From NCBI GenBank assembly GCA_963805085.1, contig CAWDTA010000003.1:128001-192000 (forward strand): DNA of 64,000 nucleotides, in the 5' to 3' direction. The notes beneath the pieces were generated by a model that was given only the letters and a program-made list of their open reading frames with translations, made no database searches and was not told the origin of the DNA. A program made the position numbers and the translations under genes. Origin of the DNA: an uncultured Veillonellaceae bacterium. Lineage in GTDB: Bacteria; Bacillota; Negativicutes; JARBTT01. The stretch's first letter is position 1, and each line of letters begins with the position of its first letter. Shown piece after piece: positions 21,937 through 64,000 of this stretch.

Positions 21937-21938
21937 GT

Positions 21939-23036: not shown

Positions 23037-23052
23037 AAAGGAGAATATAGTA

Positions 23053-27476: not shown

Positions 27477-28256
27477 GTGATAAATTATTTACCGCAAATA
27501 ATTGTCGATGACTTACTTTTCAAAGAAAAAGAAAATACTTTTAAGGGAGGTATATGCATATGTAATTTTAGCAATTGGTCGCATTACCATGAGGTGATAA
27601 ATTATTTACATCCAAAGGAAAAAGAGTATTATGATCGATTGAATATTGATAATAGAAAGAAAAGCTACCTCATAGGTAGGTATGCAGCAAAGAGAGCTAT
27701 TTCATTTTTTACTGGTGAGAATAATTATGAAAGTATATTAATACAATGGGGAATATTTAATCAACCGGTTGTAATAAATAAAAATTTACATAATACTCAG
27801 ACAAGTATAACTCATTCTGGAAATTATGGAGCAGCAGTTGTATTTCCAGAGAGTTTACCTATTGGGATAGACATAGAGAAAATTGATCCTAGAAAAAATT
27901 TTTTACTTGAAAAACAAATTACTTCAAATGAAGGAGAGTTAATAAATAGTTTTTTATATCCTCATGATACAAAACTTACAATATTATGGACTGTCAAAGA
28001 AGCATTGTCTAAAGTGATTAAAAGTGGTCTAACAGCAACGCTTGATATATTTGAAGTAAACAAAATAGAATTGAAACAAAATTATGTAGTCAATTATTTT
28101 ACGCACTTTTATCAGTATTGTGCAATTTCATTTGAATTAGACGATCGTTATATCTGTTCTATTACATATCCTAAAAATGTAGAATTGTTTATAAACATTG
28201 CAAGTTTGCAAGAACATTTTTGCCGGCTACTCCGTTCAGAAGAAATTAACTTGTAG
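27477..28256 (+). CDS. Sfp-type 4'-phosphopantetheinyl transferase
   Basis: SYLIGRYAAK, SITHSG, GIDIE and WTVKEALSK motifs. Confidence 0.9.
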   Translation: MINYLPQIIVDDLLFKEKENTFKGGICICNFSNWSHYHEVINYLHPKEKEYYDRLNIDNRKKSYLIGRYAAKRAISFFTGENNYESILIQWGIFNQPVVINKNLHNTQTSITHSGNYGAAVVFPESLPIGIDIEKIDPRKNFLLEKQITSNEGELINSFLYPHDTKLTILWTVKEALSKVIKSGLTATLDIFEVNKIELKQNYVVNYFTHFYQYCAISFELDDRYICSITYPKNVELFINIASLQEHFCRLLRSEEINL

Positions 28257-28390: not shown

Positions 28391-28666
28391 ATGGACAAAA
28401 AAATAGTCTTTATGTTTTCAGGACAAGGTTCGCAGTTTTACAATATGGGAAAAAGTCTCTATATTCATGACCAAAAATTTCGGGATACAATTCGCAATTT
28501 AAATGATATTATATATAAATTTATAGGTGTCTCGGTATTAGATGAGCTATATGGTGAAGATAAAAAAAGTAGTGGAAAATGTAAAGAAAGTAAAAGCATT
28601 ATTTTCAAAATATCAAGGAAGAGGCTAATGTTAAATTGGCAGCATGCTTTATCGACAGGGACATAG
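28391..28666 (+). pseudogene. Truncated PksD/BaeD-like acyltransferase/acyl hydrolase (only the first ~60 aa are homologous)
   Basis: VFMFSGQGSQFYNMGK N-terminal motif and a good RBS; the ORF ends before any GHSxG motif. Confidence 0.8.
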
Positions 28667-39992: not shown

Positions 39993-40005
39993 GAGAGGAG
40001 AAAAT

Positions 40006-49000: not shown

Positions 49001-52000
49001 CCTTTGATTGGAATGAGCTTTATTCTGGCACTAAGCCACAACGTATTTCTTTGCCTACGTATCCTTTTACTAAAGAACGTTATTGGGTACCTGAAATAAA
49101 AGATGCTAGTAATAGAAATTTAGCCCAAATTGAAAGCAGCCATTCTGAAAAAACTGAAAAATTTATACTTACCAAAGAATGGTGTGAAAAAAACATAGAT
49201 GCTAAAGAGGATGTACATGCAGGATTAATAGTTGTTTTGGGAACATCGGCAACGACAGACCTTGCTCAGGTATTGTTTGAAGCTACAGAAACAACACAAG
49301 TGGTTTCTGTTATTCATGGTGAAACCCATTCGCCTGAAGAAATATCTACCGATTTTTATTCCTCCTCAGCAGGTGAATCACTATATCAACAGATTAAGGA
49401 CATACAAAATGGTAATAAATTACTCGGGGTCATCGATATCACAGCTTATGATGGTGCATACGAACAGTCTACAACTGTAGAATCTGGGAAAATAACTTTC
49501 TTGCAAAAAATGATTGAGAATGATAGGAGTGAGGGCTACCGACTTTTACAGGTGACGCATAAGCTACATGCCTTCCAATTAGCAAAAACAACACTGCAAG
49601 GAGCTCGCATGGCAGGTTTGTATCGTATGTTAGGCGCTGAGTATAAGCAAATTCAGACCATAACCATGGATAGTGATTGTTTAATTCAAGATCATGAAAC
49701 ACTGGTAAAACAAATTCAAGCCGAGTTTTTGTATACAGATAAAGAGAATTTTACCGAATTTTGTTATCGGAACAATCAACGTTATCAACCATACTTGAAT
49801 CTAGCACAGACGAATGACGAGATTCAAGAGAAGCTTCAAATGCCAGCGAGCTACGGTGAGAATGACGTTATTTTAATTACTGGCGGAGCGCAGGGGATTG
49901 GTGCCTCAATTGCGAAGCATCTTGTTTCTCATGGAGCTAAAAATCTTGTTATCATGGGAAGAGAAGCTCTGCCAGAACCCTCTGAATGGAGCAACATTCT
50001 CATCAATAAAGAAAAAACTGGGATGGAAGAAAAAATCAAACGCTTACAATTCCTAATTGATCGCGGAGCAAAAGTTCGTTATTACAGTATTCCCTTAACC
50101 GATGAGAAGGGAATCAAAGCTATAGCGCAAAATATTCGCCATGATCTTGGACCTATCACCGGAGTGTTCCACTGTGCCGGATTAGTAAGTAAGAACCCGG
50201 CCTTCTTTAAAAAGCAATTACAAGATTTCGTAGCAGTCTGTGAGCCGAAGATGAAAGGGTTGGTAGCCCTGCATAGGGCACTTGTCGAAGAACCCTTGAA
50301 ATTTTTTATTTTGTTTTCATCGATATCAAGTATCGTGCCAACGTTAGCAACTGGGCAAAGTGATTATGCCGCGGCCAATGCTTACATGGATTATTATGCG
50401 CTGAATCAAGCTGGAGAGGGAAAGCATTATTTTAAATCCATTCAATGGCCGGCTTGGGGTGAAACAGGAATGGCAACGAGAGGAATGCGTACCCCCGCTT
50501 ATGTAGAGACAGGTCTCGTATCCCTGACTACAAATGATGGATTGGCGTTCTTGGAGATCATCATGAAGACTACGCCGTATATTGTTAGCCTGCCTTGCGT
50601 GGTGGTTCCGAGTGAGTTTACATCTAAATACTTATTGAAAAGCCTACAGGGTGAAAAAGAATCCAGACAGGCATCAAGACGAAAAATCGAGATGATGCCG
50701 GAAGCATCGGTGGATTTACGAATGTTGATTATACAGTGGTTAAAACAAGTTTTTAGTACAGAATTAAAATTAAAACTTGCGCAATTGGATAATGATAAAC
50801 CATTTTATGAATATGGGGTTGAATCTATTATGTTGGTGCAATTGACGCAAATATTGAGTGAAGGAGTTGGACAAACGCTGGATCCTGCATTGCTCTTGCA
50901 ACATAGTACGATAAGCGCACTGGCGGATTATTTCATGGCCAATAATGCGGAAAACTTACAAAAAACTTTTAAACTTGAAACAATTATGGCTACTGAATTT
51001 TCTCCTACAGATGGTAGTTGTTCAATAAACAATACGTTATCCCCATCACTAAACGCAGCATCTCAGTCTAGCAGTAAATCTATATCTATAAGGCAACCGA
51101 TAGGTACTAACCAGCTGGAAAAATTGGTAGAAGACATTGCTGTAGTGGGGCTATCGTGTCGGTTTCCAGATTCACCGACCAAAGAGAAATATTGGGATTT
51201 ATTGACAAAAGGAGTGACTGCAATCCGGTCGGTACCAAAACAGCGTTGGATTCCTAGAGAGAATCGTCAGGATTATGGCGGATGGATAGAGGATGTTGAG
51301 CTGTTTGATCCAAATTTCTTTAATATCAATGAGCAAGATGCAGCAATTATGGATCCGCAAGCACGAATAATTCTGGAAGAAAGCCTTCGGGCAATTTATG
51401 ATGCAGGCTATGAACACAAACAATTGTCGGGGCAAAAGATCGGAGTTTATATTGGCGGGCGTTCACAGCCCAATATGAATTTAAATGCCGTTTTAAAGGC
51501 CCCCAACCCTATTTTAGGAATGGGGCAAAACTATTTGGCAACAAATATTTCTCGATGTTTTAATTTTAAGGGGCCAAGCCTCGTAGTTGATACTGCTTGC
51601 TCATCAGGAATAACTGGCATGATGTTTGCTTGCGATTCCCTGAGAGAAGGAAGGATTGATATGGGATTGGTTGGTGCGGTAAATGTATTGGTGAGTCCTT
51701 ATGCCCACGACCTATTTGCTGCTCGCAATATTTTAAGTAAGAGCGGTGAATTTCATATCTTCGACCAGCGATCTGATGGAGAAGTGCTGGGTGAAGGCGC
51801 CGGAGTTGTATTACTAAAACGGCTTCGCGACGCCGTCAAAGACGGGAATCATATATACGGTGTTATCAAGGCTATTGCAGAAAACAATGACGGGCAAACG
51901 CTTGGCCCTGGATCACCAAATATGAATGCTCAGAAACAAGTAATGCAAGATGCACTGACCTTAAGCGGAAAACAACCGACCGATATCGGGTACATTGAGA

Positions 52001-52563
52001 TAAATGGGGGAGGATCTCCTGTGGTTGATTCCATTGAAATCAAAGCCTTGTCCGATGTTTATAATCTTGGCAATCAAGCATTATCATCATGCGTTATTGG
52101 GTCTGTCAAGCCTAATATCGGACATCTGTTATTGACGTCAGGCTTGGCGGGATTCATCCGTTGTGTGCTAAGCGTGTATCATAAACAGATTCCACCATTT
52201 TTATCTGCTTTAGATCCATTTAATTATTATGATTTTTCCTCATCACGAATTGAATTTAACAGAAAAACAATCGATTGGAGGGTAGATCCGGGAAAGAAGC
52301 GTTTGGCAGCGCAGAACTCTTTCCCAGACGGAGGTACCAATTGTCATCTTTTAATCGAAGAGTTTGTGCCTGATGGGATCTATCAGCAACAGTATTTTTC
52401 GAGGAAAATTCCAAAGATGACGAAAAAACGCTTTCCTTTACCTCAATCATCGTTGATGGAACCTTCTTTAATTATTGCAGAATCAAGTGAAAAACAAACA
52501 GATAAGAAGAGAAAACAACATAATTGTGGGGCAATACCAAGCTTATGGGGGGAAATATCGTGA
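40006..52563 (+). CDS. trans-AT PKS 2: DH-KR-ACP-KS-DH-KR-ACP-KS-KR-ACP-KS0
   Basis: GAGGAG RBS before ATG 40006. DH motifs HVVKG and HLVKG; third KR reads HCAGLVSKN; ACPs GIDSV, GIDSV and GVESI. The last KS has INGGGS in place of HGTGT. Confidence 0.95.
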   Translation: MKDFLEYIFCEVKNKRLAKTDAKDLIRQFQTNSKSCFLHPMLQQNTSDFSEQRFSSIFTGEEFFLTDHVVKGQRILPGVAYLEMARAAVEQAAGVGEERRVGIRFKNLVWTKPIAIGKQPMQIHIGIHPDDNGEIAYEIYSEPQKENTEPIIHSQGSAALCAVTEGLTLDLLSLRTQCNQGIFSSSQCYEVFRAVGLDYGPSHQGIEQIYVGQEQVLAKLTLPATVSDTKDQFILHPSLMDAALQASLMISASDVKLALPFALQELKIFEKCTSTMWALIRYSEGSKAKDKMKKIDIDLCDEQGRVCVRMKGLSSRVLEGKVDSVTDTEAIGTLMLQPSWQEKIVDSEATMPEYDRHLVMLCESHDISQEDIENQINGVRCLTLHAEQEGIESRFNNYAVQAFEQIKNILKDKHMGKVLVQIIVINQGEQQLFAGLSGLLKTAQLENPKLIGQLIEMEPGKKIEEIIEKLKENSRSPIDNHIRYQENKRCVASWNKVDVSKEAVKIPWKDQGVYLITGGAGGLGLIFAKEIAHKVKDATLILTGRTSLKKDKQAKLKELEELGAKIVYKQVDMTQKEAVVDLIESIRKDFKNLNGIIHSAGVIKDNFILKKTKEELQAVLAPKVTGLVNLDQASRELNLDFFVLFSSTTGAMGNPGQVDYATANAFMDVYAKFRHDLVNSGQRYGQTLSINWPLWQEGSMRVDTKTEKMMKENTGMIPMRTDVGIQALYQGLASGKSQVLVAEGNLKQLEVTLLEAQQFNKETPSHSEKNKAVPEIDQDWLKEKAENYFKKLLSTIIKLPAERIEIDAPMENYGIDSVMIMQLINQLEKVFGSLSKTLFFEYQNIKELTGYFLESHRDRLTELLGIEGKEVANAVSSEFITEVEDEKPAISRRKHSRFASMHIDAQLEKEKEAKDIAIIGLSGRYPGARTVQEFWQNLKNGKDCITEIPKDRWDYTLYFDENKDIPGKIYSKWGGFLEGVDQFDPLFFNISPREAEFMDPQERLFLQCVYETLEDAGYTREVLGSYRNFGLEGNVGVYVGVMYEEYQLYGAQEQSQGRPTALSGSPSSIANRISYFCNFHGPSMALDTMCSSSLTAIHLACQSLQKGGCELAIAGGVNVSVHPNKYLLLSQNKFVSSKGRCESFGQGGDGYVPGEGVGAVLLKPLSKAVADGDHIYGIIKATAINHGGKTNGYTVPNPNAQASVIDAALKEAGLNPRLISYVEAHGTGTSLGDPIEITGLTKAFQEYTKDKQYCAIGSAKSNIGHCESAAGIAALTKVLLQIKHCQLVPSLHSKTINTNIDFSSTPFIVQQELEEWKRPLIEINGQSQEYPRIAGISSFGAGGANAHVVIEEYIPDQARTLITVTQEKPAMIVLSAKSEECLKERSQQLLSAIQTQQFSDTDLVDIAYTLQVGREVMDERLAITAVSIRELEEKLQGYLDGKENIDDFYRGQVKRNKETLAVFTADEELQQAIGKWIQRGKYAKLLNLWVKGLFFDWNELYSGTKPQRISLPTYPFTKERYWVPEIETKRSSISAITAFGHPLLHQNTSDLAEQRFTSIFTGQEFFLADHLVKGHNVLPGVTHLEMARAAVQQAAGDLQEEKIQIQLQNIVWIRPVIVEEKPVKIHIGLYPEERGQIAYEIYSQPDQVNVDPIVYSQGIALLNTAQDAPVLELRDLQADCNQSVLSVSKLYETFKEMGIDYGPAQQGIEQLYTGQNQVLARLKLPTSITATQGQFVLHPSMMDAALQASIGLLMDTTLPNKPILPFALQELKIFEKCTSTMWALIRYSEGSKAKDKMKKIDIDLCDEQGRVCVRMKGLSSRVLEGKVDSVTDTEAIGTLMLQPSWQEKIVDSEATMPEYDRHLVMLCESHDISQEDIENQINGVRCLTLHAEQEGIESRFNNYAVQAFEQIKNILKDKHMGKVLVQIIVINQGEQQLFAGLSGLLKTAQLENPKLIGQLIEMEPGKKIEEIIEKLKENSRSPIDNHIRYQENKRCVASWNKVDVSKEAVKIPWKDQGVYLITGGAGGLGLIFAKEIAHKVKDATLILTGRTSLKKDKQAKLKELEELGAKIVYKQVDMTQKEAVVDLIESIRKDFKNLNGIIHSAGVIKDNFILKKTKEELQAVLAPKVTGLVNLDQASRELNLDFFVLFSSTTGAMGNPGQVDYATANAFMDVYAKFRHDLVNSGQRYGQTLSINWPLWQEGSMRVDTKTEKMMKENTGMIPMRTDVGIQALYQGLASGKSQVLVAEGNLKQLEVTLLEAQQFNKETPSHSEKNKAVPEIDQDWLKEKAENYFKKLLSTIIKLPAERIEIDAPMENYGIDSVMIMQLINQLEKVFGSLSKTLFFEYQNIKELTGYFLESHRDRLTELLGIEGKEVANAVSSEFITEVEDEKPAISRRKHSRFASMHIDAQLEKEKEAKDIAIIGLSGRYPGARTVQEFWQNLKNGKDCITEIPKDRWDYTLYFDENKDIPGKIYSKWGGFLEGVDQFDPLFFNISPREAEFMDPQERLFLQCVYETLEDAGYTREVLGSYRNFGLEGNVGVYVGVMYEEYQLYGAQEQSQGRPTALSGSPSSIANRISYFCNFHGPSMALDTMCSSSLTAIHLACQSLQKGGCELAIAGGVNVSVHPNKYLLLSQNKFVSSKGRCESFGQGGDGYVPGEGVGAVLLKPLSKAVADGDHIYGIIKATAINHGGKTNGYTVPNPNAQASVIDAALKEAGLNPRLISYVEAHGTGTSLGDPIEITGLTKAFQEYTKDKQYCAIGSAKSNIGHCESAAGIAALTKVLLQIKHCQLVPSLHSKTINTNIDFSSTPFIVQQELEEWKRPLIEINGQSQEYPRIAGISSFGAGGANAHVVIEEYIPDQARTLITVTQEKPAMIVLSAKSEECLKERSQQLLSAIQTQQFSDTDLVDIAYTLQVGREVMDERLAITAVSIRELEEKLQGYLDGKENIDDFYRGQVKRNKETLAVFTADEELQQAIGKWIQRGKYAKLLNLWVKGLSFDWNELYSGTKPQRISLPTYPFTKERYWVPEIKDASNRNLAQIESSHSEKTEKFILTKEWCEKNIDAKEDVHAGLIVVLGTSATTDLAQVLFEATETTQVVSVIHGETHSPEEISTDFYSSSAGESLYQQIKDIQNGNKLLGVIDITAYDGAYEQSTTVESGKITFLQKMIENDRSEGYRLLQVTHKLHAFQLAKTTLQGARMAGLYRMLGAEYKQIQTITMDSDCLIQDHETLVKQIQAEFLYTDKENFTEFCYRNNQRYQPYLNLAQTNDEIQEKLQMPASYGENDVILITGGAQGIGASIAKHLVSHGAKNLVIMGREALPEPSEWSNILINKEKTGMEEKIKRLQFLIDRGAKVRYYSIPLTDEKGIKAIAQNIRHDLGPITGVFHCAGLVSKNPAFFKKQLQDFVAVCEPKMKGLVALHRALVEEPLKFFILFSSISSIVPTLATGQSDYAAANAYMDYYALNQAGEGKHYFKSIQWPAWGETGMATRGMRTPAYVETGLVSLTTNDGLAFLEIIMKTTPYIVSLPCVVVPSEFTSKYLLKSLQGEKESRQASRRKIEMMPEASVDLRMLIIQWLKQVFSTELKLKLAQLDNDKPFYEYGVESIMLVQLTQILSEGVGQTLDPALLLQHSTISALADYFMANNAENLQKTFKLETIMATEFSPTDGSCSINNTLSPSLNAASQSSSKSISIRQPIGTNQLEKLVEDIAVVGLSCRFPDSPTKEKYWDLLTKGVTAIRSVPKQRWIPRENRQDYGGWIEDVELFDPNFFNINEQDAAIMDPQARIILEESLRAIYDAGYEHKQLSGQKIGVYIGGRSQPNMNLNAVLKAPNPILGMGQNYLATNISRCFNFKGPSLVVDTACSSGITGMMFACDSLREGRIDMGLVGAVNVLVSPYAHDLFAARNILSKSGEFHIFDQRSDGEVLGEGAGVVLLKRLRDAVKDGNHIYGVIKAIAENNDGQTLGPGSPNMNAQKQVMQDALTLSGKQPTDIGYIEINGGGSPVVDSIEIKALSDVYNLGNQALSSCVIGSVKPNIGHLLLTSGLAGFIRCVLSVYHKQIPPFLSALDPFNYYDFSSSRIEFNRKTIDWRVDPGKKRLAAQNSFPDGGTNCHLLIEEFVPDGIYQQQYFSRKIPKMTKKRFPLPQSSLMEPSLIIAESSEKQTDKKRKQHNCGAIPSLWGEIS
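40779..44582 (+). repeat. Direct repeat copy 1 (about 3.8 kb, DH C-terminus-KR-ACP-KS)
   Basis: Matches 45294-49097 at offset 4515; I spotted only two substitutions by eye. Confidence 0.95.
45294..49097 (+). repeat. Direct repeat copy 2 (about 3.8 kb)
   Basis: The same set of shadow ORFs recurs at +4515 (for example 42716 vs 47231 and 43843 vs 48358). Confidence 0.95.
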
Positions 52564-55500
52564 AATATAGTTTAACAATAACCACAGAGCATCCGATAGT
52601 CAAAGGTCACATGGTTTATGAGGAAAATTTGCTGCCGGGATTGGCCTATATTGATATGCTGTATCATTTGGCGCAAGATAGCGTGGGACTAGATTATAGG
52701 AAGCATTGCTTGAAGCGTTTGACTATTTACACTCCCTTAATCGTGAGAGAAAATCGTCCAGTAAAGCTCGAAATTCTGTTTGATAGGGTATCAGATTATT
52801 GGAAAATTGCAGTTGAGGGGACGGAAACAGACGAGCATGGCGGTCCATTACCGAAAAAATTGTACATCACGGCTGAATTACATGAAGAAACAATACGATT
52901 TGAAGAACAAATAGATATTGAAGCCATAAAACATGCAGCTATGCAGTGCGTGGATATGGAAACGGTGTATGCAAAAGCCAGAAAACTAGGATTGGTTCAC
53001 CAGGGGATGATTAAGGCCAGAGGAAATATCTTTCTGACAGACTTCGGGTGTTTAATTGAAGTTAAAGTGGATGAGGCTTATCACGATGAAGAACCAAAAG
53101 TGCTTTTTCATCCCACCCTCATTGATGGTGCTGCAATGGCAACGGGGATTTTAGAAGGTAAAGACGATAAAGGAAACAATGAAGACCTATACATTCCATT
53201 GTTTTATGAATCATTTATCTCAATAGAACCCCTGCATACCCATTGTTATGCCAGGGTAAAGTCGTCTTCGTTCCGTAGGGTTAATGATGTTTGTACAACA
53301 GATATTGCGTTTTTTAACAAAGCGGGAAAACAGGTTGCGCAGCTAAATGGAATAACTGCAAAACGGATACGTTTTAAGGAACAGATTAACCCGGATTTGA
53401 AAAAAGAAACTGTTTTATCTGCTGTTCAAGGACATTCTGTTTCTGATGAGCCTTATCAATATCAAATCGAGACAACCTCAACGTACATCGAAAGTCTCTT
53501 ACGGAAGATATTTTCTAGGCACCTCAATCAGCCGGCATCTAAGATTGACATAAATTCAGGTTTCTATGAATTTGGTCTAGAATCATCCCAATTAATGGCT
53601 ATAGTGAATGATATTGAAAAATCCTTTAGCTTATCTTTAAGTCCAACTTTGTTGTTTGAAAATAGTAATATTAGAGAATTAGTAGATTGCTTAAAAGTAA
53701 AAAAGAGAGAAAGTGGCTATGGTGCGCATGTTGAATTTGAACCTGTTGAAAAAATGGACGGCGAGTTTGGTTCGTTCGAAGAAAGTAGGAGAGTAACAGA
53801 AAAGGGAAAAGCTGTTCAAGACATTGCCATCATCGGCCTTTCAGGGCGCTACCCTGGGGCGAACAATGTTCAGGAATTTTGGCAAAATCTAAAAGACGGC
53901 AGAGATTCTATTACTGAGATTCCCAAAGATCGCTGGGATCACAGCCTGTACTTCGACGAGGATAAAAGCAAGCAAGGAAAAACATATTGTAAGTGGGGAG
54001 GATTTTTAGAAGGTGTGGATCAATTTGATCCTCTATTCTTCAATATTTCACCGCGAGATGCAGAGATGATGGATCCTATGAACCGTCTTTTTCTGGAAAC
54101 TGTTTGGAATCTACTTGAAAACACAGGATATACACAAGAAATCCTGGAACGCCAATATCAGTCCAGTGTTGGGGTTTACGTCGGCGCAATGTATCAACAA
54201 TATCATTATTTTAATTCAGATCGTATTACAGAATCGGCGATTTCTGTATCTTCCTATAGTTCTATTGCTAATCGTATTTCTTACTTTTTTAACCTACATG
54301 GCCCTAGTGTGGCTGTCGATACTGCGTGTTCTTCTTCGGCCGTTGCTATTCACATGGCCTGCGAAAGTTTGATAAATGGAGAGTGTCAGGTAGCCATTGC
54401 TGGGGGCGTAAATCTTTCCATTCATCCTAATAAATACATAGGCTTAAGCCGGATGCAATTACTTGGTAGCCATCCAAATAGTAGAAGCTTCGGAAATGGG
54501 GATGGATTTCTTCCCGCTGAAGGCGTGGGCGCGGTATTGTTAAAGCCACTCGCTAAAGCAATCAGGGATGGGGATTCCATCTTAGCCGTAATTAAATCGA
54601 CAGCGATCAATCACGGAGGGCGTACTAATGCATTTTGCGTGCCTAATCCTAATGCGCAAGCGCAACTATTCGAAGACAATTTTAAAAAATCCGGGATTGA
54701 TCCCCGGACGATCAGTTATGTTGAAGCCGCTGCCAGTGGAACGGTTTTAGGAGATCCAGTCGAAATCACTGCATTGAATAAAACTTTTAAGAAATTTACA
54801 AACGACCAGCAGTTTTGTGCAATTGGATCGGTCAAATCCAATATTGGGCACGCTGAAGCAGCTTCGGGAATCTCCCAACTTACGAAAGTGATTTTACAGT
54901 TACAACATCGACAAATGGTTCCGACGATCAAAGCGGAACCCCTGAATTCCAATATAAGTTTTGATAACACCCCGTTTTATTTGCAGCGAGAACTTCAGGA
55001 TTGGAAACGCCCTGTGGTAAAAATTGATGGATATGAACAAGAGTTTCCACGACGTGCCACGGTAAGTTCCTTTGGGGCAGGGGGATCAAATGCGCATTTA
55101 ATTATCGAAGAATATGTCCCATTACAAGAAGAATCGCATTATACCCCTTGTTCTTCAAGTACACCTCAGATTGTGGTATTTTCGGCTAAAAACCAGGACC
55201 AATTAGTAGCAGTTGTTGAGCAAATGCTTGATTTTATTGAACTTCAAAAGGATTTTTCCTTACCCGAGCTTGCTTATACGCTTCAAATAGGGCGAGAAGC
55301 GATGGAATCTCGATTAGCAATGATTGTCTGTAATCAAGAAGAGCTAATCCGGGGTATGAAGGAGTATCTCAGCAATAAGGCTGAAGTTTGCATACCTACT
55401 TTTATAGGAGATCAGGAAGGTAATCATTCGAAGTTTATAAGCCTTATAAATCTGCTTTCAGGGAAGGCAGAGCAAGCTGTTTTGCAAGTGTTTTTGGCAG

Positions 55501-56132
55501 AACAGGATTTTGAGAAAATTGCTCTTTATTGGACACAAGGCGGTAAAATTCCTTGGAAATTGTTACATGAAGATCAAAAAGTCCGCAAGATACTTTTGCC
55601 TACCTATCCTTTTGCTCGAGAACACTATTGGATCTCAGAGCAAGGAGAGGAAGATTATCAATCAACTGCTATTCAACCCGCTGTAGGCGGCGAACAGAAG
55701 ATAACCGTTGATCTTAGTAATCCAACACAGAAAAATATTCAGGATTATATTGTGCATTTTTTATCGCAGCAACTGCATCTTGCGCAGGAACAAATCAATG
55801 TAAATAAAAATCTCCAAGACTATGGTGTGGATTCAATTATTGTAATGAAAATTATGCGTGAGTTTGAAGTACGCTTTAAACTCAAAATTACAGGACGAGA
55901 AATGCTGGAACATCAAACAATTAATGCTATGTCGTCTCATCTCACTTTAAAATTAGAAGCGTTGAGTAACCAAGATATTGCTGCAATCAATGTTTTACAC
56001 ACGGAATTTCAGCCGATGGAGTTACTAGCATCACCCGTTGATGAACCAGAAATCGAAGCTTTGGAAAAATTTAAACAAGGGACACTAACTCTTGAGGAAA
56101 TAGAGAGCTTATTAGATAAAGGAGTGATATAG
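52560..56132 (+). CDS. trans-AT PKS 3: DH-ACP-KS0-ACP
   Basis: GTG start overlaps the PKS2 TGA (GTGA). DH reads HMVYEENLLPGLAYID; ACPs GLESS and GVDSI; the KS has EAAASGT in place of EAHGTGT. Confidence 0.93.
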   Translation: MKYSLTITTEHPIVKGHMVYEENLLPGLAYIDMLYHLAQDSVGLDYRKHCLKRLTIYTPLIVRENRPVKLEILFDRVSDYWKIAVEGTETDEHGGPLPKKLYITAELHEETIRFEEQIDIEAIKHAAMQCVDMETVYAKARKLGLVHQGMIKARGNIFLTDFGCLIEVKVDEAYHDEEPKVLFHPTLIDGAAMATGILEGKDDKGNNEDLYIPLFYESFISIEPLHTHCYARVKSSSFRRVNDVCTTDIAFFNKAGKQVAQLNGITAKRIRFKEQINPDLKKETVLSAVQGHSVSDEPYQYQIETTSTYIESLLRKIFSRHLNQPASKIDINSGFYEFGLESSQLMAIVNDIEKSFSLSLSPTLLFENSNIRELVDCLKVKKRESGYGAHVEFEPVEKMDGEFGSFEESRRVTEKGKAVQDIAIIGLSGRYPGANNVQEFWQNLKDGRDSITEIPKDRWDHSLYFDEDKSKQGKTYCKWGGFLEGVDQFDPLFFNISPRDAEMMDPMNRLFLETVWNLLENTGYTQEILERQYQSSVGVYVGAMYQQYHYFNSDRITESAISVSSYSSIANRISYFFNLHGPSVAVDTACSSSAVAIHMACESLINGECQVAIAGGVNLSIHPNKYIGLSRMQLLGSHPNSRSFGNGDGFLPAEGVGAVLLKPLAKAIRDGDSILAVIKSTAINHGGRTNAFCVPNPNAQAQLFEDNFKKSGIDPRTISYVEAAASGTVLGDPVEITALNKTFKKFTNDQQFCAIGSVKSNIGHAEAASGISQLTKVILQLQHRQMVPTIKAEPLNSNISFDNTPFYLQRELQDWKRPVVKIDGYEQEFPRRATVSSFGAGGSNAHLIIEEYVPLQEESHYTPCSSSTPQIVVFSAKNQDQLVAVVEQMLDFIELQKDFSLPELAYTLQIGREAMESRLAMIVCNQEELIRGMKEYLSNKAEVCIPTFIGDQEGNHSKFISLINLLSGKAEQAVLQVFLAEQDFEKIALYWTQGGKIPWKLLHEDQKVRKILLPTYPFAREHYWISEQGEEDYQSTAIQPAVGGEQKITVDLSNPTQKNIQDYIVHFLSQQLHLAQEQINVNKNLQDYGVDSIIVMKIMREFEVRFKLKITGREMLEHQTINAMSSHLTLKLEALSNQDIAAINVLHTEFQPMELLASPVDEPEIEALEKFKQGTLTLEEIESLLDKGVI

Positions 56133-57797
56133 TATGACGCGAAAAGAACTTCTCATCGCATATAAAGAAGGTAAGCTATCGACAGCTGAATTACAGGAAC
56201 AACTTCATGTGCTCAAAGAGCAATCTAACAAGAATCCTCTTTCCGAAGGCCAAAAAGGCTTGTGGATGTTGCAAAAAGTTTCACCTGAAATGAGTGCTTA
56301 TAATATTCCTTTATGCTTCCGTATTGATCAGAAACTGGATATCGAGAAGTTCAAGCAAGCCTGTAGTTTTATTCTGCAGAAGTATCCCATTCTTACAAGT
56401 GTATTTGGTGAAGATGATGGGATTCCTTACCAAATGATTCAGCCATCACAGCCGCTTGGCTGGCAGCAAGAAGATATTTCGACGCTTGAAGCTGACAAAA
56501 TTCTCCCGTATCTCAGGGAAAAAGCCAAAGAACCATTTTCACTCGAACGCGGCTCTTTAATGCGGATTCAGCTTTTGTCACGGTCTGAACAAGAACACAT
56601 TGTACTCATTGTCATTCACCATATTGTCTTTGATGGCACTTCTTCCTTGATTTTAGTTAAATCTCTACTAGAAGCATATCGAGACCTTGGTGATGGGAAG
56701 GGGGTGGAAGCAAAACCTTTCTCGACAAGCTTCAATGACTTTGTCGAATGGGAACAAGCAATGCTATCAAGTGCGGAAGGCGAAGCGCATCGTGATTACT
56801 GGAGAAAGCAATTATCTGGAACCTTACCAATATTGGAACTTCCTACAGATCGGCCTCGTCTTTCCTCACAAGGCTCAGAAGGCAAAACCTATACAAGCTT
56901 GCTTTCGCCTGAATTGACGAAACAAATAAAAACCTTTGCGCAAACCCAGAATATGAATTTGTCTATTATTTTATTAGGCATTTATAAAGTATTGCTGTAT
57001 CGCTATACAGATCTAGAGGATATTATCGTAGGAATGCCGACATTAGGACGTCCAGAAGAAAGATTTGACTCACAGATCGGCTATTTTGTGAACATGTTGC
57101 CGGTACGAAGTCAGATAAGGGATGAGCAATGCTTTTCTAAATTTATCAAAGAATTACAGCTAAATGTGATTGACGGATTGGATCATGCAGTGTATCCATT
57201 TCCCGCTATAGTCAGGGAATTAAATGTATCCCGCGAGACGAATTCGCCTGTTTTTCAAACAGCTTTTATTTACCAGAATTTTCTCCAATCAACAAGTTTA
57301 AAAACAACCGATGGTCAGGGGCAAAATTCGCTTCACATAGAGTTTATGGAGGATATTCATCAGGAAGGAGAGTTTGAGTTTGCGTTAGAAATTTTTGATA
57401 TGGACGACCATTTTACTTTAAATATCAAATATGATCCTGCTTTATATGATCATTCGACGATTAAACGAATGCTGGGGCACTATGTTAATTTAGCCGAAGA
57501 AGTTGTGAACGATCCAAACTTGCCCCTAGGAGAATATTCTTTAATATCAAGAGAGGAGCAAGCTACGATACTTAGTGACTGGAATGCGACTCAGGCGGAT
57601 TATCCAAAGGATCATACCATCCATCAACTTTTTGAAGAACAAGTAGAGAGAGCACCGGATAATACAGCAGTGGTATTTGAAGAAAGCAGCCTTACCTACA
57701 GACAGCTAAATAATAAAGCCAACCAACTTGCGAGAGTACTGCGAGAAAAAGGTGTGACACCCAATAGTATAGTTGCCATAATGGTAGAGCGATCTTT
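56121..57797 (+). repeat. Direct repeat copy 1 (RBS, docking region, C domain and A N-terminus)
   Basis: Matches 59657-61333 at offset 3536; four amino-acid differences seen. Confidence 0.95.
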
Positions 57798-59478
57798 CAC
57801 GATGGTTATCGCTATCTTGGGAATCTTAAAAGCGGGCGGGGCATATTTGCCAATCGACCCTGAATATCCGGAAGATAGAATCAAGTTTATGCTGGAAGAT
57901 AGCCAGGCAGAAATCTTATTAACTCAGAGCCATCTAAAAGAAAAGAATGAATTTGACCTAGAAGTAATCGACTTGGATAACGAAGCCGTATATACCGTCG
58001 CAGATACTAATGTGGAGATTGTCAATCAGCCAAATGACTTGGCGTATGTAATCTATACATCGGGCTCTACTGGTAAACCGAAGGGAGCCATGATTGAGCA
58101 TAAAAATGTAGTACGGTTGATGTTTAATGACAAAATGCAGTTTGATTTCAGTCAAGCCGATGTGTGGACTATGTTTCATTCCTATTGTTTTGACTTTTCC
58201 GTATGGGAAATGTATGGTGCTTTATTATACGGAGGAAAGTTAATCATTGTGTCTAAGATGATGTCTCGAGACACTAGAGAATATTTATTGCTTTTAAAGC
58301 GGGAAAAGGTAACAGTATTAAACCAAACTCCCACCGCATTTTATAACTTAATTGCTGAAGAAATAAAATGTTCGGATCGGCAACTCAACATAAGGTATGT
58401 AATATTTGGCGGTGAGGCGTTAAAGCCGGGGAAATTAAAAGATTGGAACATAAAATATCCCAAGACTGAATTAATCAACATGTATGGAATAACGGAGACA
58501 ACCGTTCATGTAACTTATAAAAAGATAACTCAGTACGAAATAAGTTTAAATATCAGTAATATCGGGAGACCCATACCAACATTAACAACCTATATCATGA
58601 GCAAAAATATGAAGTTACAACCGATAGGAGTTATAGGAGAGTTATGTGTCGGAGGAGATGGATTAGGACGGGGTTATATAAAACGCCCCGAATTGACAAC
58701 CAAAAAGTTTATTCAAAGTCCATACTGCTCCAAGGAAATAATTTATAAATCTGGAGATTTGGCTCGGTATTTACCAAATGGTGAACTTGAATATTTAGGT
58801 CGAATCGACCATCAAGTCAAGATCAGAGGGTTCAGAATTGAATTGGGAGAGATCGAAAGTCGGTTATTAAAGCACGAAACAATTAAAGAAACGATAGTGG
58901 TAGACAAAGAGGATGATTACGGAAATAAATACCTATGCGCGTATATTGTCGGCGATAGGGAGCTTAACGTGAACGAATTACGAAATTACCTGTTGCAAGA
59001 GCTGCCGGAGTATATGATTCCCTCATATTTTATCCCATTAGAAAAAATACCGCTAACATCGAATAGCAAAGTAGATAGAAAAATGTTGCCTGATCCAGAT
59101 GGCAGCATGATCACTGGTGAAGAATACGAAGCTCCAAGAAATGAGATAGAAAAAAGACTTGCACAAATATGGCAGGAAGTATTGGAAGTTAAAAATATCG
59201 GCATAAATGATAATTTCTTTGCCTTAGGCGGAGACTCAATAAAAGCAATTCAAGTGTTAACGAGGCTTCAGAGTTTTAAACTGAAATTGGACGCCAAAAC
59301 TTTATTGACGAAGCCTGTAATAAAAGAATTGAGTAAATATGTAATACGTATTGAGCAGTATATAACAAACGAAGAAGTACAAATTACATCAAGCGATACT
59401 ATTGCCCAAAGAATTGGCTTAGAAGAGTTTGACAAAATATTAAAGGAATATCAATCTAATTTAGATGAAAAAATTTAG
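56134..59478 (+). CDS. Single-module NRPS C-A-PCP, A domain predicted to activate Thr
   Basis: C motif HHIVFDG. A pocket FDFSVWE / NQTP / IFGGE / NMYGITETTVH gives the DFWNIGMV Thr code. PCP motif GGDSI. Confidence 0.93.
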   Translation: MTRKELLIAYKEGKLSTAELQEQLHVLKEQSNKNPLSEGQKGLWMLQKVSPEMSAYNIPLCFRIDQKLDIEKFKQACSFILQKYPILTSVFGEDDGIPYQMIQPSQPLGWQQEDISTLEADKILPYLREKAKEPFSLERGSLMRIQLLSRSEQEHIVLIVIHHIVFDGTSSLILVKSLLEAYRDLGDGKGVEAKPFSTSFNDFVEWEQAMLSSAEGEAHRDYWRKQLSGTLPILELPTDRPRLSSQGSEGKTYTSLLSPELTKQIKTFAQTQNMNLSIILLGIYKVLLYRYTDLEDIIVGMPTLGRPEERFDSQIGYFVNMLPVRSQIRDEQCFSKFIKELQLNVIDGLDHAVYPFPAIVRELNVSRETNSPVFQTAFIYQNFLQSTSLKTTDGQGQNSLHIEFMEDIHQEGEFEFALEIFDMDDHFTLNIKYDPALYDHSTIKRMLGHYVNLAEEVVNDPNLPLGEYSLISREEQATILSDWNATQADYPKDHTIHQLFEEQVERAPDNTAVVFEESSLTYRQLNNKANQLARVLREKGVTPNSIVAIMVERSFTMVIAILGILKAGGAYLPIDPEYPEDRIKFMLEDSQAEILLTQSHLKEKNEFDLEVIDLDNEAVYTVADTNVEIVNQPNDLAYVIYTSGSTGKPKGAMIEHKNVVRLMFNDKMQFDFSQADVWTMFHSYCFDFSVWEMYGALLYGGKLIIVSKMMSRDTREYLLLLKREKVTVLNQTPTAFYNLIAEEIKCSDRQLNIRYVIFGGEALKPGKLKDWNIKYPKTELINMYGITETTVHVTYKKITQYEISLNISNIGRPIPTLTTYIMSKNMKLQPIGVIGELCVGGDGLGRGYIKRPELTTKKFIQSPYCSKEIIYKSGDLARYLPNGELEYLGRIDHQVKIRGFRIELGEIESRLLKHETIKETIVVDKEDDYGNKYLCAYIVGDRELNVNELRNYLLQELPEYMIPSYFIPLEKIPLTSNSKVDRKMLPDPDGSMITGEEYEAPRNEIEKRLAQIWQEVLEVKNIGINDNFFALGGDSIKAIQVLTRLQSFKLKLDAKTLLTKPVIKELSKYVIRIEQYITNEEVQITSSDTIAQRIGLEEFDKILKEYQSNLDEKI

Positions 59479-59494
59479 TGGGAGGATGATCAAG

Positions 59495-59545
59495 TTGGAT
59501 AAAAATAATATTAAAGATGTCCCCTATATAGCAGGTGTATTATAG
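59495..59545 (+). pseudogene. Decayed copy of the 5' end of the downstream NRPS gene at 63045
   Basis: GGGAGGATGATCAAGTTGGATAAAAATAATATTAAAGAT is identical to 63030-63068, followed by degenerate TCCCCTAT..AGCAGG and an early TAG. Confidence 0.8.
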
Positions 59546-59656
59546 TATTAACTCAAAATAATGAGTTTAACAGGAGTGATAAGAACGTTTAACTGATTGA
59601 CTCAATTCGATTAACTAATTACTGAGTTCAATATTTGAACTTAAATATATTTATAG

Positions 59657-61333
59657 GGAGTGATATAGTATGACGCGAAAAGAACTTCTCATCGCATATA
59701 AAGAAGGTAAGCTATCGACAGCTGAATTACAGGAACAACTTCATGTGCTCAAAGAGCAATCTAACAAGAATCCTCTTTCCGAAGGCCAAAAAGGCTTGTG
59801 GATGTTGCAAAAAGTTTCACCTGAAATGAGTGCTTATAATATTCCTTTATGCTTCCGTATTGATCAGAAACTGGATATCGAGAAGTTCAAGCAAGCCTGT
59901 AGTTTTATTCTGCAGAAGTATCCCATTCTTACAAGTGTATTTGGTGAAGATGATGGGGTTCCTTACCAAATGATTCAGCCATCACAGCCGCTTGGCTGGC
60001 AGCAAGAAGATATTTCGACGCTTGAAGCTGACAAAATTCTCCCGTATCTCAGGGAAAAAGCCAAAGAACCATTTTCACTCGAACGCGGCTCTTTAATGCG
60101 GATTCAGCTTTTGTCACGGTCCGAGCAAGAACACATTGTACTCATTGTCATTCACCATATTGTCTTTGATGGCACTTCCTCCTTGATTTTAGTTAAATCT
60201 CTACTAGAAGCATATCGAGACCTTGGTGATGGGAAGGGGGTGGAAGCAAAACCTTTCTCGACAAGCTTCAATGACTTTGTCGAATGGGAACAAGCAATGC
60301 TATCAAGTGCGGAAGGCGAAGCGCATCGTGATTACTGGAGAAAGCAATTATCTGGAACCTTACCAATATTGGAACTTCCTACAGATCGGCCTCGTCTTTC
60401 CTCACAAGGCTCAGAAGGCAAAACCTATACAAGCTTGCTTTCGCCTGAATTGACGAAACAAATAAAAACCTTTGCACAAACCCAGAATATGAATTTGTCT
60501 ATTATTTTATTAGGCATTTATAAAGTATTGCTGTATCGCTATACAGATCTAGAGGATGTTATCGTAGGAATGCCGACATTAGGACGTCCAGAAGAAAGAT
60601 TTGACTCACAGATCGGCTATTTTGTGAACATGTTGCCGGTACGAAGTCAGATAAGGGATGAGCAATGCTTTTCTAAATTTATCAAAGAATTACAGCTAAA
60701 TGTGATTGACGGATTGGATCATGCAGTGTATCCATTTCCCGTTATAGTCCGGGAATTAAATGTATCCCGCGAGACGAATTCACCTGTTTTTCAAACAGCT
60801 TTTATTTACCAAAATTTTCTCCAATCAACAAGTTTAAAAACAACCGATGGTCAGGGGCAAAATTCGCTTCACATAGAGTTTATGGAGGATATTCATCAGG
60901 AAGGAGAGTTTGAGTTTGCGTTAGAAATTTTTGATATGGACGACCATTTTACTTTAAATATCAAATATGATCCTGCTTTATATGATCATTCGACGATTAA
61001 ACGAATGCTGGGGCACTATGTTAATTTAGCCGAAGAAGTTGTGAACGATCCAAACTTGCCCCTAGGAGAATATTCTTTAATATCAAGAGAGGAGCAAACT
61101 ACGATACTTAGTGACTGGAATGCGACTCAGGCGGATTATCCAAAGGATCATACCATCCATCAACTTTTTGAAGAACAAGTAGAGAGAGCACCGGATAATA
61201 CAGCAGTGGTATTTGAAGAAAGCAGCCTTACCTACAGACAGCTAAATAATAAAGCCAACCAACTTGCGAGAGTACTGCGAGAAAAAGGTGTGACACCCAA
61301 TAGTATAGTCGCCATAATGGTAGAGCGATCTTT
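59657..61333 (+). repeat. Direct repeat copy 2 (RBS, docking region, C domain and A N-terminus)
   Basis: Identity with copy 1 ends abruptly after GTAGAGCGATCTTT (VERS). Confidence 0.95.
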
Positions 61334-63017
61334 AGAAATGATCATAGGGATTATGGGCATTGTCAAGGCAGGGGGCGCATATTTGCCGATAAGTCCTGAC
61401 AATCCGGAAGAGCGAATAACATATATGTTGAAAGATAGCGAAGCAAAAATTGTGCTCACGCAAAATCGTTTTATTCATAAAGCTCATTTTGATGGTTTAA
61501 CGATAGATTTAGAAGGAAACGGCCTATATGTAGGAAAGAAAGGAAACCTGAAAAAAGTAAATTCACCTAGAGATATCGCATATGTAATATATACATCTGG
61601 TTCAACTGGCAAACCAAAGGGAGTGTTGATAGAACATCGTTCACTAATAAATAGACTAAATTGGATGCAGAAAAGTTATTCCATCGGAGAAAGCGATACG
61701 ATATTGCAAAAGACACCATATACCTTTGATGTATCGGTGTGGGAACTATTCTGGTGGTCTTTACAGGGGTCAAGGGTATGCTTTTTAAAACCGGGGGATG
61801 AAAAGGATCCTAGTAAAATTGTGGATGAAATAGAGAAAAACAATATAACAACTATGCATTTTGTACCTTCCATGCTAAATGCATTTTTGGAATATATGGA
61901 AGCATGCATAGACGTAAAAAGGCTTTCAAGTTTGAGACAGGTATTTGCAAGTGGAGAAGCCCTTTCCTTGCAACAAGTAAAACGCTTTAACAAATTACTT
62001 AAAGAAAGGAACAATACCAAGCTGTTCAATTTATATGGACCAACGGAAGCGACGATTGATGTATCCTATTTCGACTGTTCATCAGGAGAAGCGTTACATA
62101 TTATACCTATTGGCAAGGCAATAGACAATACTAGGCTTTATGTGCTGGATAAGAACAGAAGGCTGCAACCTGTGGGAATAACAGGAGAATTATATATAGC
62201 TGGGGATGGACTGGCAAGAGGATATCTAAACAGACCGGAGCTAACGACAGAAAAGTTTGTGCCTGATCCCTTTGTACCTGGAGAGAGAATGTATTTAACG
62301 GGCGACCTTGCAAGATGGCTGCCTGATGGGAATATAGAATATTTGGGAAGAATAGACCATCAGGTAAAAATTAGAGGTTTGAGAATCGAGTTGGGTGAAA
62401 TTGAAAACCGGCTCCAAAGCCATGCAGCAATAAAAGAAGCGGTAGTAGTAATAAAAGAAGGAAAAGAAGGAAGTAAATATCTTTGCGGATATATTACTGC
62501 CCAAGAAAAGCTTGACATCGGTGAGATAAAAAATTATCTGTCTAAGGAATTGCCAGAGTATATGGTCCCTAACTATATTATCCAGCTAAAAAGAATACCA
62601 CTTATATCTAGCGGTAAAGTAGATAGAAAAATGCTACCAGAGCCGGATGGCAGCATAATAGCAGATACGAAATATGAAGCACCCAGAAATGATGTAGAAA
62701 AAATACTTATTGAAATATGGCAAGAAGTGTTAGAAATTAAAAATATAGGCATAAATAATGATTTCTTTGCTTTAGGAGGAGATTCTATAAAAGCGATACA
62801 AGTGTTAGCGAGGCTCCAGAGATTTAAGTTGAAATTGGACGCCAAAACTTTATTGACGAATCCTGTAATAAAGGAATTGAGTAAATATGTAATACATGTC
62901 GAGCCTTGCATAAGAAAAGAAAAAGTACAAATTGCAATAAGCGATACTATTGCCAAAAGAATTGACCAAGATGAGTTCGACAAAATATTAAAGGAATATC
63001 AAGATAATTTAGCATGA
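59670..63017 (+). CDS. Single-module NRPS C-A-PCP, A domain predicted to activate Ser
   Basis: C motif HHIVFDG. A pocket FDVSVWE / HFVPSML / FASGE / NLYGPTEATID gives the DVWHFSLI Ser code. PCP motif GGDSI. Confidence 0.93.
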   Translation: MTRKELLIAYKEGKLSTAELQEQLHVLKEQSNKNPLSEGQKGLWMLQKVSPEMSAYNIPLCFRIDQKLDIEKFKQACSFILQKYPILTSVFGEDDGVPYQMIQPSQPLGWQQEDISTLEADKILPYLREKAKEPFSLERGSLMRIQLLSRSEQEHIVLIVIHHIVFDGTSSLILVKSLLEAYRDLGDGKGVEAKPFSTSFNDFVEWEQAMLSSAEGEAHRDYWRKQLSGTLPILELPTDRPRLSSQGSEGKTYTSLLSPELTKQIKTFAQTQNMNLSIILLGIYKVLLYRYTDLEDVIVGMPTLGRPEERFDSQIGYFVNMLPVRSQIRDEQCFSKFIKELQLNVIDGLDHAVYPFPVIVRELNVSRETNSPVFQTAFIYQNFLQSTSLKTTDGQGQNSLHIEFMEDIHQEGEFEFALEIFDMDDHFTLNIKYDPALYDHSTIKRMLGHYVNLAEEVVNDPNLPLGEYSLISREEQTTILSDWNATQADYPKDHTIHQLFEEQVERAPDNTAVVFEESSLTYRQLNNKANQLARVLREKGVTPNSIVAIMVERSLEMIIGIMGIVKAGGAYLPISPDNPEERITYMLKDSEAKIVLTQNRFIHKAHFDGLTIDLEGNGLYVGKKGNLKKVNSPRDIAYVIYTSGSTGKPKGVLIEHRSLINRLNWMQKSYSIGESDTILQKTPYTFDVSVWELFWWSLQGSRVCFLKPGDEKDPSKIVDEIEKNNITTMHFVPSMLNAFLEYMEACIDVKRLSSLRQVFASGEALSLQQVKRFNKLLKERNNTKLFNLYGPTEATIDVSYFDCSSGEALHIIPIGKAIDNTRLYVLDKNRRLQPVGITGELYIAGDGLARGYLNRPELTTEKFVPDPFVPGERMYLTGDLARWLPDGNIEYLGRIDHQVKIRGLRIELGEIENRLQSHAAIKEAVVVIKEGKEGSKYLCGYITAQEKLDIGEIKNYLSKELPEYMVPNYIIQLKRIPLISSGKVDRKMLPEPDGSIIADTKYEAPRNDVEKILIEIWQEVLEIKNIGINNDFFALGGDSIKAIQVLARLQRFKLKLDAKTLLTNPVIKELSKYVIHVEPCIRKEKVQIAISDTIAKRIDQDEFDKILKEYQDNLA

Positions 63018-63044
63018 AAAAAAATAAAAGGGAGGATGATCAAG

Positions 63045-64000
63045 TTGGATAAAAATAATATTAAAGATATTTATCCTTTGTCCCCTATGCAGCAGGGTAT
63101 GTTGTTCCATGCTATAGTAGATGAAAACTCAAGGTCATATTTTCAACAAATAACCGTTACATTGGATGGAGATATAGACATAGGGGTATTTGAAGAAAGC
63201 TTTAATAATGTTATTAAAAAATATGATATTTTAAAAACCATGTTTATTTATAAAAGCGTTAAGGAGCCGGTACAGCTGGTTTTGAAGGATAGAAAAGCAA
63301 AAATTCATTTTGAAGATATATCAAAAATAGACGACAACGAGAAAATAGAATATATAGCGACATTTATGCAGAAAGATAAAGAAAGAGGTTTTAACTTATC
63401 AAAAGATATTCTTATTAGAATGGCAATATTTAAGAATGATGAAAAAATCCATAAATTAATATTAAGCTCTCAGCACATCATTATGGATGGTTGGTCTCTA
63501 GGGTTAGTATTAAATGCGATTTTTGAAAACTACATTAAGTTACAAAACAAACAACCTTTAAACATGCACGAAATAGCGCATTATAGTGACTTTATTAAAT
63601 GGCTTGAGCAACAAGATAAAGATGCAGGATTGCTGTATTGGCATAATTATTTGGCAGGATATGAACAAAAGGCAGAGATTCCATGTTGTACTGACAGAAT
63701 TAATGAAGGCAAAAGGTATATCCTGGGGCAAACAATATTCTCCATAAATAAATCCTTAACGAATAAACTTAACAGGCTGGCAAAAAAGAAGGGAATAACA
63801 TTAAATACAATATTCCAGATAGCATGGGGAATACTGCTCCAGAAATATAATTATACAGAAGATGTAGTTTTTGGTACGGTAGTGTCAGGAAGACCGCCGG
63901 AAATTGAAGGAATAGAAAGTATGGTGGGAATGCTTATGAACACCATACCAGTAAGGATGAATTTCGAACATAGTCGTACCTTCAATGAAATAATAAAACC
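63045..64000 (+). CDS. NRPS, 3' end outside the window; N-terminal DCL-type condensation domain
   Basis: GGAGG RBS and TTG start; the frame stays open to the window end. Motifs IYPLSPMQQGMLFH, SQHIIMDGWS, AWGILLQKY and DVVFGTVVSGRP. Confidence 0.9.
   Translation, partial: MDKNNIKDIYPLSPMQQGMLFHAIVDENSRSYFQQITVTLDGDIDIGVFEESFNNVIKKYDILKTMFIYKSVKEPVQLVLKDRKAKIHFEDISKIDDNEKIEYIATFMQKDKERGFNLSKDILIRMAIFKNDEKIHKLILSSQHIIMDGWSLGLVLNAIFENYIKLQNKQPLNMHEIAHYSDFIKWLEQQDKDAGLLYWHNYLAGYEQKAEIPCCTDRINEGKRYILGQTIFSINKSLTNKLNRLAKKKGITLNTIFQIAWGILLQKYNYTEDVVFGTVVSGRPPEIEGIESMVGMLMNTIPVRMNFEHSRTFNEIIK

Follow-up and report, generated by a model that had tools for sequence, protein, structure and literature searches.

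Twin nonribosomal peptide synthetase genes with exchanged adenylation cores in a Negativicutes trans-AT cluster: a possible branched assembly line and its fused relative

When two neighbouring nonribosomal peptide synthetase (NRPS) genes share nearly identical docking and condensation regions and differ in the part that selects the amino acid, do they act one after the other or as alternatives to each other? The question is raised by two genes, here called A and B, in a 64,000-nucleotide (nt) stretch from an uncultured Veillonellaceae bacterium (G000:C3:128001-192000, G000 being the genome under study). This whole stretch is referred to as the window, and positions are those of the window unless another contig is named. 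The twins sit inside a large hybrid cluster of polyketide synthase (PKS) and NRPS genes of the trans-acyltransferase (trans-AT) type, between the PKS subunit PKS3 and a further synthetase, NRPS3. They form an old duplicate pair in which one copy appears to have received a new adenylation core, and we see about an even chance that in G000 the line splits over the two proteins and rejoins behind them. In a relative, the two modules are fused into a single protein.

Gene A (56134..59478, + strand) and gene B (59670..63017, + strand) encode proteins of 1114 and 1115 amino acids, each consisting of a condensation (C) domain, an adenylation (A) domain, a peptidyl carrier protein (PCP) and a tail. 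Pfam finds Condensation, AMP-binding, AMP-binding_C and PP-binding in both, with E-values of 2.8e-115 and 4.7e-115 for Condensation. The sequence HHIVFDG, an instance of the HHxxxDG motif of C domains, is present in both C domains, as is the carrier motif GGDSIKA, with its phosphopantetheine serine, further on. With a C domain, a complete ten-residue pocket code ending in lysine and a PCP, each protein is an NRPS elongation module.

The likeness of the two genes is concentrated in a direct repeat (56121..57797 and 59657..61333, both + strand) that takes in the ribosome-binding site (RBS), the N-terminal dock (residues 1-33) and the complete C domain and extends into the A domain as far as the residues VERS. 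In an ungapped comparison the copies differ at 12 of 1677 nt (99.28% identity). Identity begins 13 nt upstream of the ATG and ends abruptly at 57797/61333, right after the VERS codons, just as the original prediction had described. Only four amino acids differ between A and B over residues 1-554, whereas nucleotide identity in the A core (residues 556-940) is 53.5%. The predicted return of similarity over the PCP and the C-terminal tail was also found, with 77.4% identity in the stretch from A10 to the PCP and 82.5% in the tail, climbing toward the 3′ end. A near-perfect repeat of 1.68 kb within two intact open reading frames (ORFs) excludes a chance origin.

The pocket codes, read from alignment columns anchored on the gene A motifs, are DFWNIGMVHK in gene A and DVWHFSLIDK in gene B, while NRPS3 has DILQLGMIWK. 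By the Stachelhaus code, we take these to be Thr, Ser and Gly codes, respectively; the codes named in the original prediction are confirmed by the alignment, and its Thr/Ser assignment follows from the Stachelhaus code. The Thr-type segment of gene A (57798..59253, + strand) runs from the A2 motif to about the middle of the PCP and would not be native to the lineage of gene B.

The age of the pair can be judged from an independent metagenome contig, L087, with about 92.6% nucleotide identity to the G000 locus. There, a Thr-type module (M1) followed by a Ser-type module (M2) lies between orthologs of PKS3 and NRPS3, and on its right-hand side the repeat breaks off at the same codon as in G000. 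In the C region (1563 nt), A and B show 12 differences and M1 and M2 show 0-1, against 114-117 between the genomes (92.6% identity, 7.4% apart). The A cores instead pair across genomes: A and M1 share 93.6% nucleotide identity (dS 0.25, dN/dS 0.105) and B and M2 share 92.6% (dS 0.30, dN/dS 0.085). Because the C regions are alike within genomes and the cores alike between them, the pair and its exchange of cores must be older than the divergence of the two lineages. Gene conversion has evidently evened out the C regions in one lineage independently of the other, and the two A cores, judged by these rates, have been under purifying selection and have stayed functional.

M1 and M2 are encoded in one ORF of L087 (7156-13803, 2215 amino acids). 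At the junction of this in-frame fusion, the tail of M1 continues in frame into residue 11 of the second dock, and a stop codon, remnant, spacer and ten dock codons are all missing. From this arrangement, M2 of L087 would be unable to dock as a free subunit, sitting as it does behind the PCP of M1, which implies that serial use of Thr and then Ser is the natural reading for the organism behind L087. Compared with the first dock, what is left of the second shows 5 differences in 69 nt (L087:7186-7256 vs 10486-10556), every one of them non-synonymous; the 1563 nt that follow show none. A homologue search for longer proteins listed large multi-module NRPSs of at most 69% identity as its matches, the L087 protein not among them, and is uninformative on other fused forms.

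Public sequencing reads gave little on the split state in G000: 12 runs were found, each with at most 0.14 of the sampled words. The assembled contigs of four runs (likeness 90) were short, low-depth pieces, none of which reached the junction between A and B at 59479-59669. In one run (X4), pieces of 152-347 letters covered sections of the C region and of both cores, Thr and Ser, each with 7-20 deviating letters; at most, this hints at an L087-like organism in that run.

In G000, a stop codon and a 191-nt spacer part gene A from gene B. The spacer opens with a decayed duplicate of the NRPS3 RBS and gene start (59479..59560, + strand), in which 39 identical nt are followed by insertions and deletions and a 16-codon ORF is left. 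The identical stretch (59480-59518 vs 63030-63068) takes in the RBS, a TTG start and eight codons; its flanks on both sides have diverged or carry insertions and deletions, and the identity could be due to chance, to a small conversion patch or to a retained translation start. The earlier claim that the same RBS and start of the next NRPS follow both genes therefore stands for these 39 nt, but gene A is followed only by a decayed remnant and by no second NRPS3. Because this remnant follows gene A, the pair would have begun as two genes, with the split state ancestral, and in our reading the fusion in L087 is derived.

The spacer also holds one copy (59555..59660, + strand) of an element of some 100 nt that is dispersed over the genome and has a palindrome at its core. 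It is followed by an AT-rich stretch and an RBS, and its copies stand directly 5′ of the start codons of unrelated genes as well as of gene B. Other sites are G000:C3:89663-89713, C2:1965310-1965354 and C2:2041203-2041247, with a partial copy at C2:1382559-1382583; some 29 nt of the C2 copies are absent from the one before gene B. The element may be a portable promoter, operator or leader, perhaps serving gene B. An Rfam search of 59300-59800 returned a single match at chance level (E 0.83) and none for the element. Over 55800-63400, a promoter scan gave 25 sites against 25.4 expected, and 11 terminator-like sites were found against 5.0 expected, none of them on the + strand of the spacer.

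Single-copy relatives of the twins suggest which core came first. Matches occur in 4 of 401 genomes of the class, and two separately encoded paralogous modules of different A specificity at one locus are found only in G000. L001, a contig of a metagenome-assembled genome (MAG) of Pelosinus, a genus of the Negativicutes, is identical across the compared gene to G006:C22, from a genome of the same class as G000, and has one gene for a 1557-amino-acid protein with a Ser code, in which C, A and PCP are followed by an extra domain. G060, the one-contig genome of a member of another family, encodes a single 1108-amino-acid C-A-PCP protein, also with a Ser code. The A core of gene B matches L001/G006 at 32-47 of 42-50 residues per window of comparison and G060 at 37-47 of 49-50. 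An apparently single-copy protein of 1553 amino acids with a Thr code and the same extra domain is encoded on a contig of only 4.9 kb (P0011), and the Thr-type segment of gene A is 89% identical to it in amino acids; elsewhere in G000 the best match to the Thr core reaches 49% in amino acids. Since the gene B core matches L001 and the gene A core is 89% identical to P0011, Ser is most readily seen as the resident, ancestral type, and the Thr segment would have come from a P0011-like cluster. The natural exchange of an A core with both variants retained as separate genes, as originally predicted, is thus supported by the shared right breakpoint in L087, by a single-copy counterpart of each core type and by purifying selection.

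The extra domain of L001 and P0011 is an epimerization (E) domain, with the E domains of GrsA and TycA as its best solved matches. It is cleanly missing, with the tail kept, from both G000 genes, from L087 and from G060 (window 59230-59478 and 62770-63017; L081:12729-12911; L001:7022-8440). The deletion has the same junction in A and B, and the tails of both align with the stretch that L001 and P0011 carry after their E domain, so the E domain would have been lost before the duplication. The loss in G060 has a different endpoint, which suggests that it happened separately.

From these observations a history can be proposed. The ancestor would have been a single C-A(Ser)-PCP gene in a trans-AT PKS/NRPS line, its E domain already lost. 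A tandem duplication would then have copied this gene along with the RBS and the first part of the gene behind it, after which one copy would have acquired the Thr-type segment, from A2 to the PCP, by recombination with an orthologous, P0011-like cluster. Afterwards gene conversion would have held the dock-plus-C-domain part near-identical while both A cores stayed under purifying selection. In the working line, as we infer partners and products, PKS3 would pass its polyketide to either A or B, and either would pass it on to NRPS3, so that the line splits and rejoins and makes polyketide-Thr-Gly and polyketide-Ser-Gly congeners 14 Da apart. In the relative diverged by about 7%, a deletion would have fused the two genes into a serial bimodular protein, Thr then Ser. 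The dehydrated residues (Dhb/Dha) that had also been foreseen as products found no support, as no candidate dehydrating domain was seen.

The case for parallel use in G000 comes from the docking interfaces. PKS3 (52524..56132, + strand), the last trans-AT PKS subunit upstream of the twins, has a dehydratase-like domain, a ketosynthase (KS) and two acyl carrier proteins (ACPs) by Pfam. In an alignment of tails, it ends in a helix-turn-helix-like segment that is nearly invariant in G000, L087, L001 and G060. The 33-residue N-terminal segment of the twins also looks like a helix-turn-helix and is conserved as far as loci of Bacillus; the two presumably resemble four-helix-bundle docks. The N-terminal docks of A and B differ at 0 of 99 nt, and because they are identical PKS3 should be unable to tell A from B.

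The junction from the twins to NRPS3 is of another kind. In relatives, an E domain, the residues TPSD and a tail face a short N-terminus before LSPMQQG. The best matches of the NRPS3 C domain are the N-terminal C domains of TycB (9bfd_B) and SrfA-C, and a further match is the C domain found immediately behind an E domain in the bacitracin synthase 3 chain (9rde_A: E 9-473, C 477-916). The twin C domain is of another subtype (best match TycC with 198 bits, vs 109 bits for TycB). Because the C domain of NRPS3 is thus most like those placed after E domains, the junction from tail to NRPS3 is probably of the E/COM type, unlike the N-terminal dock of the twins themselves; the COM concept is said to go back to Hahn and Stachelhaus. 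The tails of A and B are similar, and in single-copy relatives such a tail precedes NRPS3. Both tails would thus fit NRPS3, with no matched dock leading from A to B, which favours parallel use in G000. By its sequence, the NRPS3 C domain is still of the post-E kind although the G000 twins are without an E domain, which bears on the stereochemistry at this junction.

Serial use in G000 as well, from PKS3 to A (Thr), then B (Ser) and NRPS3, would give polyketide-Thr-Ser-Gly, with a split bimodule that was later cemented by fusion in the relative. We hold this to be less likely than parallel use. The gene order A, B equals the module order in the fused protein, and the ancestral residue Ser would remain adjacent to Gly. 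In L087 the C domain must take both an ACP-bound polyketide and a PCP-bound polyketide-Thr, so that it should be capable of either. By eye and unscored, the last helix of the PKS3 tail also shows a weak likeness to a helix in the tail of gene A. On the other hand, the indistinguishable docks offer PKS3 no reason to choose A over B, and the gene A tail keeps the core that is common to B and the single-copy relatives, where this tail faces NRPS3. The N-terminus of the twins differs in kind from that of NRPS3, and therefore A has no matched dock on B. In G000 the two modules are separated by the stop codon, the spacer, and a tail and dock of different junction types, and in L087 they are joined in one polypeptide. 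The absence of a matched A-to-B dock fits the view that covalent fusion was needed for a serial line in L087. A complex prediction for residues 1-60 of the twins with the last 60 residues of gene A scored 0.02; it was run without controls and is used neither way. The interchangeable modules of the original prediction keep their common dock and C domain and their similar tails facing NRPS3, but its preference for parallel over serial use, though plausible, is challenged by the fusion in L087; at least for that relative this implies serial Thr-Ser, an outcome that the prediction itself had listed against its reading.

Several further points weigh against a branched line in G000. The fused L087 ortholog shows that serial Thr and then Ser is viable, and if serial use preceded the fusion, the fusion would be neutral, which is the simpler history. 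The identity of the N-terminal docks falls within the conversion tract and need not have been selected. The docking classes named here, COM donor and acceptor for the tail and the NRPS3 N-terminus and a four-helix-bundle-like dock for the twins, are putative assignments guided by alignment to relatives. The tract without mismatches in L087 (7257-8819) may be inflated by repeat collapse, although collapse itself requires near-identity. The genome is also MAG-like, with a completeness of 83% and a contamination of 6%.

A different doubt is whether the line works at all, since one copy could be a neutral leftover of duplication, or the cluster could be decaying in G000. The KS of the PKS gene after NRPS3 is broken, over some 0.7 kb, by a single in-frame stop and three or more frame changes (G000:C3:202646-203407 = L071:12646-13407; 74646-75407 on the window scale, past the window end), and fragments of a transposase and an acyltransferase (AT) domain lie just upstream of PKS1. 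The catalytic motifs of this KS are still readable across the frames, and its lesions may be a local assembly error or a recent inactivation, so that the line may be dead in G000 or the assembly locally wrong. However, neither twin ORF is interrupted and the core motifs of both are kept, the two A cores have evolved at a dN/dS of about 0.1 since they parted from L087, and the remaining megasynthase ORFs listed for the cluster are all intact, the longest with 6396 amino acids. We therefore regard an idle copy or line as improbable. That the pair is an assembly artefact, in which Thr and Ser strain alleles were concatenated in a MAG, is highly improbable: the genome is MAG-like and both allele types occur naturally as single-copy genes, but the misassembly alternative, named already in the original prediction, was rejected on the complex spacer, with its decayed next-gene remnant and a dispersed element known from other loci, and on the independent L087 contig, with both modules in tandem and the same breakpoint.

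The surroundings are those of a large trans-AT cluster in a genome assembled into five contigs (4.2 Mb, G+C 37-39%). PKS1 (28788-39992) and PKS2 (39940-52563) have no AT domain by Pfam; Acyl_transf_1 has no match in PKS1-3 or the later PKS parts, KS-linker families are present, and a free-standing AT ORF of 285 amino acids is found further downstream on the same contig (C3:256709-257548). NRPS3 (63036..63998, + strand, as far as the window reaches; the whole gene runs to window coordinate 69578, past the window end) encodes a protein of 2180 amino acids with the order C-A(Gly)-PCP-KS-ACPs. Downstream of it come additional PKS genes, genes for an HMG-CoA-synthase-like protein and an enoyl-CoA hydratase, and another three megasynthases. 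The first genes of the cluster (20665-24970) encode an outer-membrane efflux protein, an adaptor like HlyD and an ABC pump of the MacB type, likely the export system of a diderm host, and a phosphopantetheinyl transferase gene (27477-28256) comes after them. The fragments upstream of PKS1 are of an ISL3-family transposase (25323-25853, - strand) and of an acyltransferase domain, over 54 positions (28406-28609, + strand). Modules of PKS1 and PKS2 share segments that are 100% identical (31517-32099, 40779-41361 and 45294-45876; 42727-43026 and 47242-47541), spaced 4515 and 9262 nt apart, and gene conversion between modules seems to be general in this cluster.

If the branched reading holds, G000 and L087 offer a natural pair of a split twin and a fused bimodule, and suggest a path, open to testing, by which a branched line could become a longer one. 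The exact natural breakpoints, after VERS between A1 and A2 and inside the PCP, would have survived selection in two lineages and could be useful for the design of A-domain exchanges. One C domain sequence would serve both Thr and Ser acceptors and, in the fused relative, also two kinds of donor. The locus would further show that an E domain can be lost cleanly more than once while the docking tail stays in place. The case comes from the Negativicutes, a class for which no related trans-AT literature was found: in a limited collection of papers without supplements, no report combined Pelosinus with trans-AT, and Negativicutes with trans-AT polyketide led only to unrelated work.

Parts of the arrangement recur in known systems. 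The region of N-terminal dock and C domain (residues 1-554) is 49-53% identical to trans-AT clusters of B. atrophaeus, B. spizizenii and other Bacillus loci, where the module starts right after a large upstream ORF with a similar tail. We take this Bacillus module behind a PKS subunit to be PksN of bacillaene synthase. In contrast to the twins, the module is single in Bacillus loci L003 and L004 and lies within a longer protein. At the other end, the TycA-TycB and SrfA-B-SrfA-C junctions resemble the relatives of the twins, whose gene ends in an E domain, TPSD and a tail, and the best matches of the NRPS3 C domain are those of TycB and SrfA-C; unlike those junctions, G000, L087 and G060 have kept the tail without the E domain.

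Branching has also been described. In Moorea producens, as reviewed, the vatiamide pathway has a single PKS cassette that is shared by three NRPS partners (PMC8341276). Like PKS3, this upstream cassette has several separate NRPS partners, but the three give different products and, in the portion of the report at hand, rejoining is not described, whereas the G000 branches would rejoin on NRPS3 (PMC8341276). The anabaenopeptin synthetase of Anabaena sp. 90 has two alternative starter proteins, AptA1 and AptA2 (Rouhiainen et al., 2010, as reviewed in PMC8402340). According to the accessible text, these are separately encoded, differ in A specificity and feed the same downstream NRPS, and relatives have one gene; they are, however, starter bimodules without an upstream chain, while the G000 twins are internal and would share an upstream partner (PMC8402340).

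The closest precedent is the wollamide/desotamide line of Streptomyces (WolG1/WolG2), in which gene duplication and A-domain recombination led to a bifurcated NRPS (Booth et al., 2022; PMC9205934). As far as the available sections of that paper go, a whole NRPS gene was duplicated there too, the A specificity of one copy was recombined, both copies dock to one partner and two congener families result; its authors also treat concerted evolution as a confounder (PMC9205934). The wollamide duplicates are the last subunits of a pure NRPS, and their new A segment was donated by a second locus of the same genome (PMC9205934). The G000 twins instead stand in the middle of a hybrid trans-AT PKS/NRPS line whose branches would reunite, and G000 has no donor of its own. 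The same sections model two outcomes of such a bifurcation, loss of the duplicate or loss of the original, and do not mention a fused derivative such as that in L087 (PMC9205934). Tentatively, and with somewhat less than even confidence, G000 and L087 may be viewed as two stages of module gain, in which duplication of a subunit gene with its docks would first give a branched, rejoining line, as in G000, one copy would then be re-specified by import of an A2-to-PCP segment while gene conversion holds the C domains identical, and a small deletion would at last fuse both copies into a serial bimodule, as in L087. If true, fusion would be a third outcome of bifurcation beside the two in the wollamide model (PMC9205934). 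The present case differs from its precedents in that the twins are internal, their branches would rejoin, the host line is a trans-AT PKS hybrid and a fused derivative exists.

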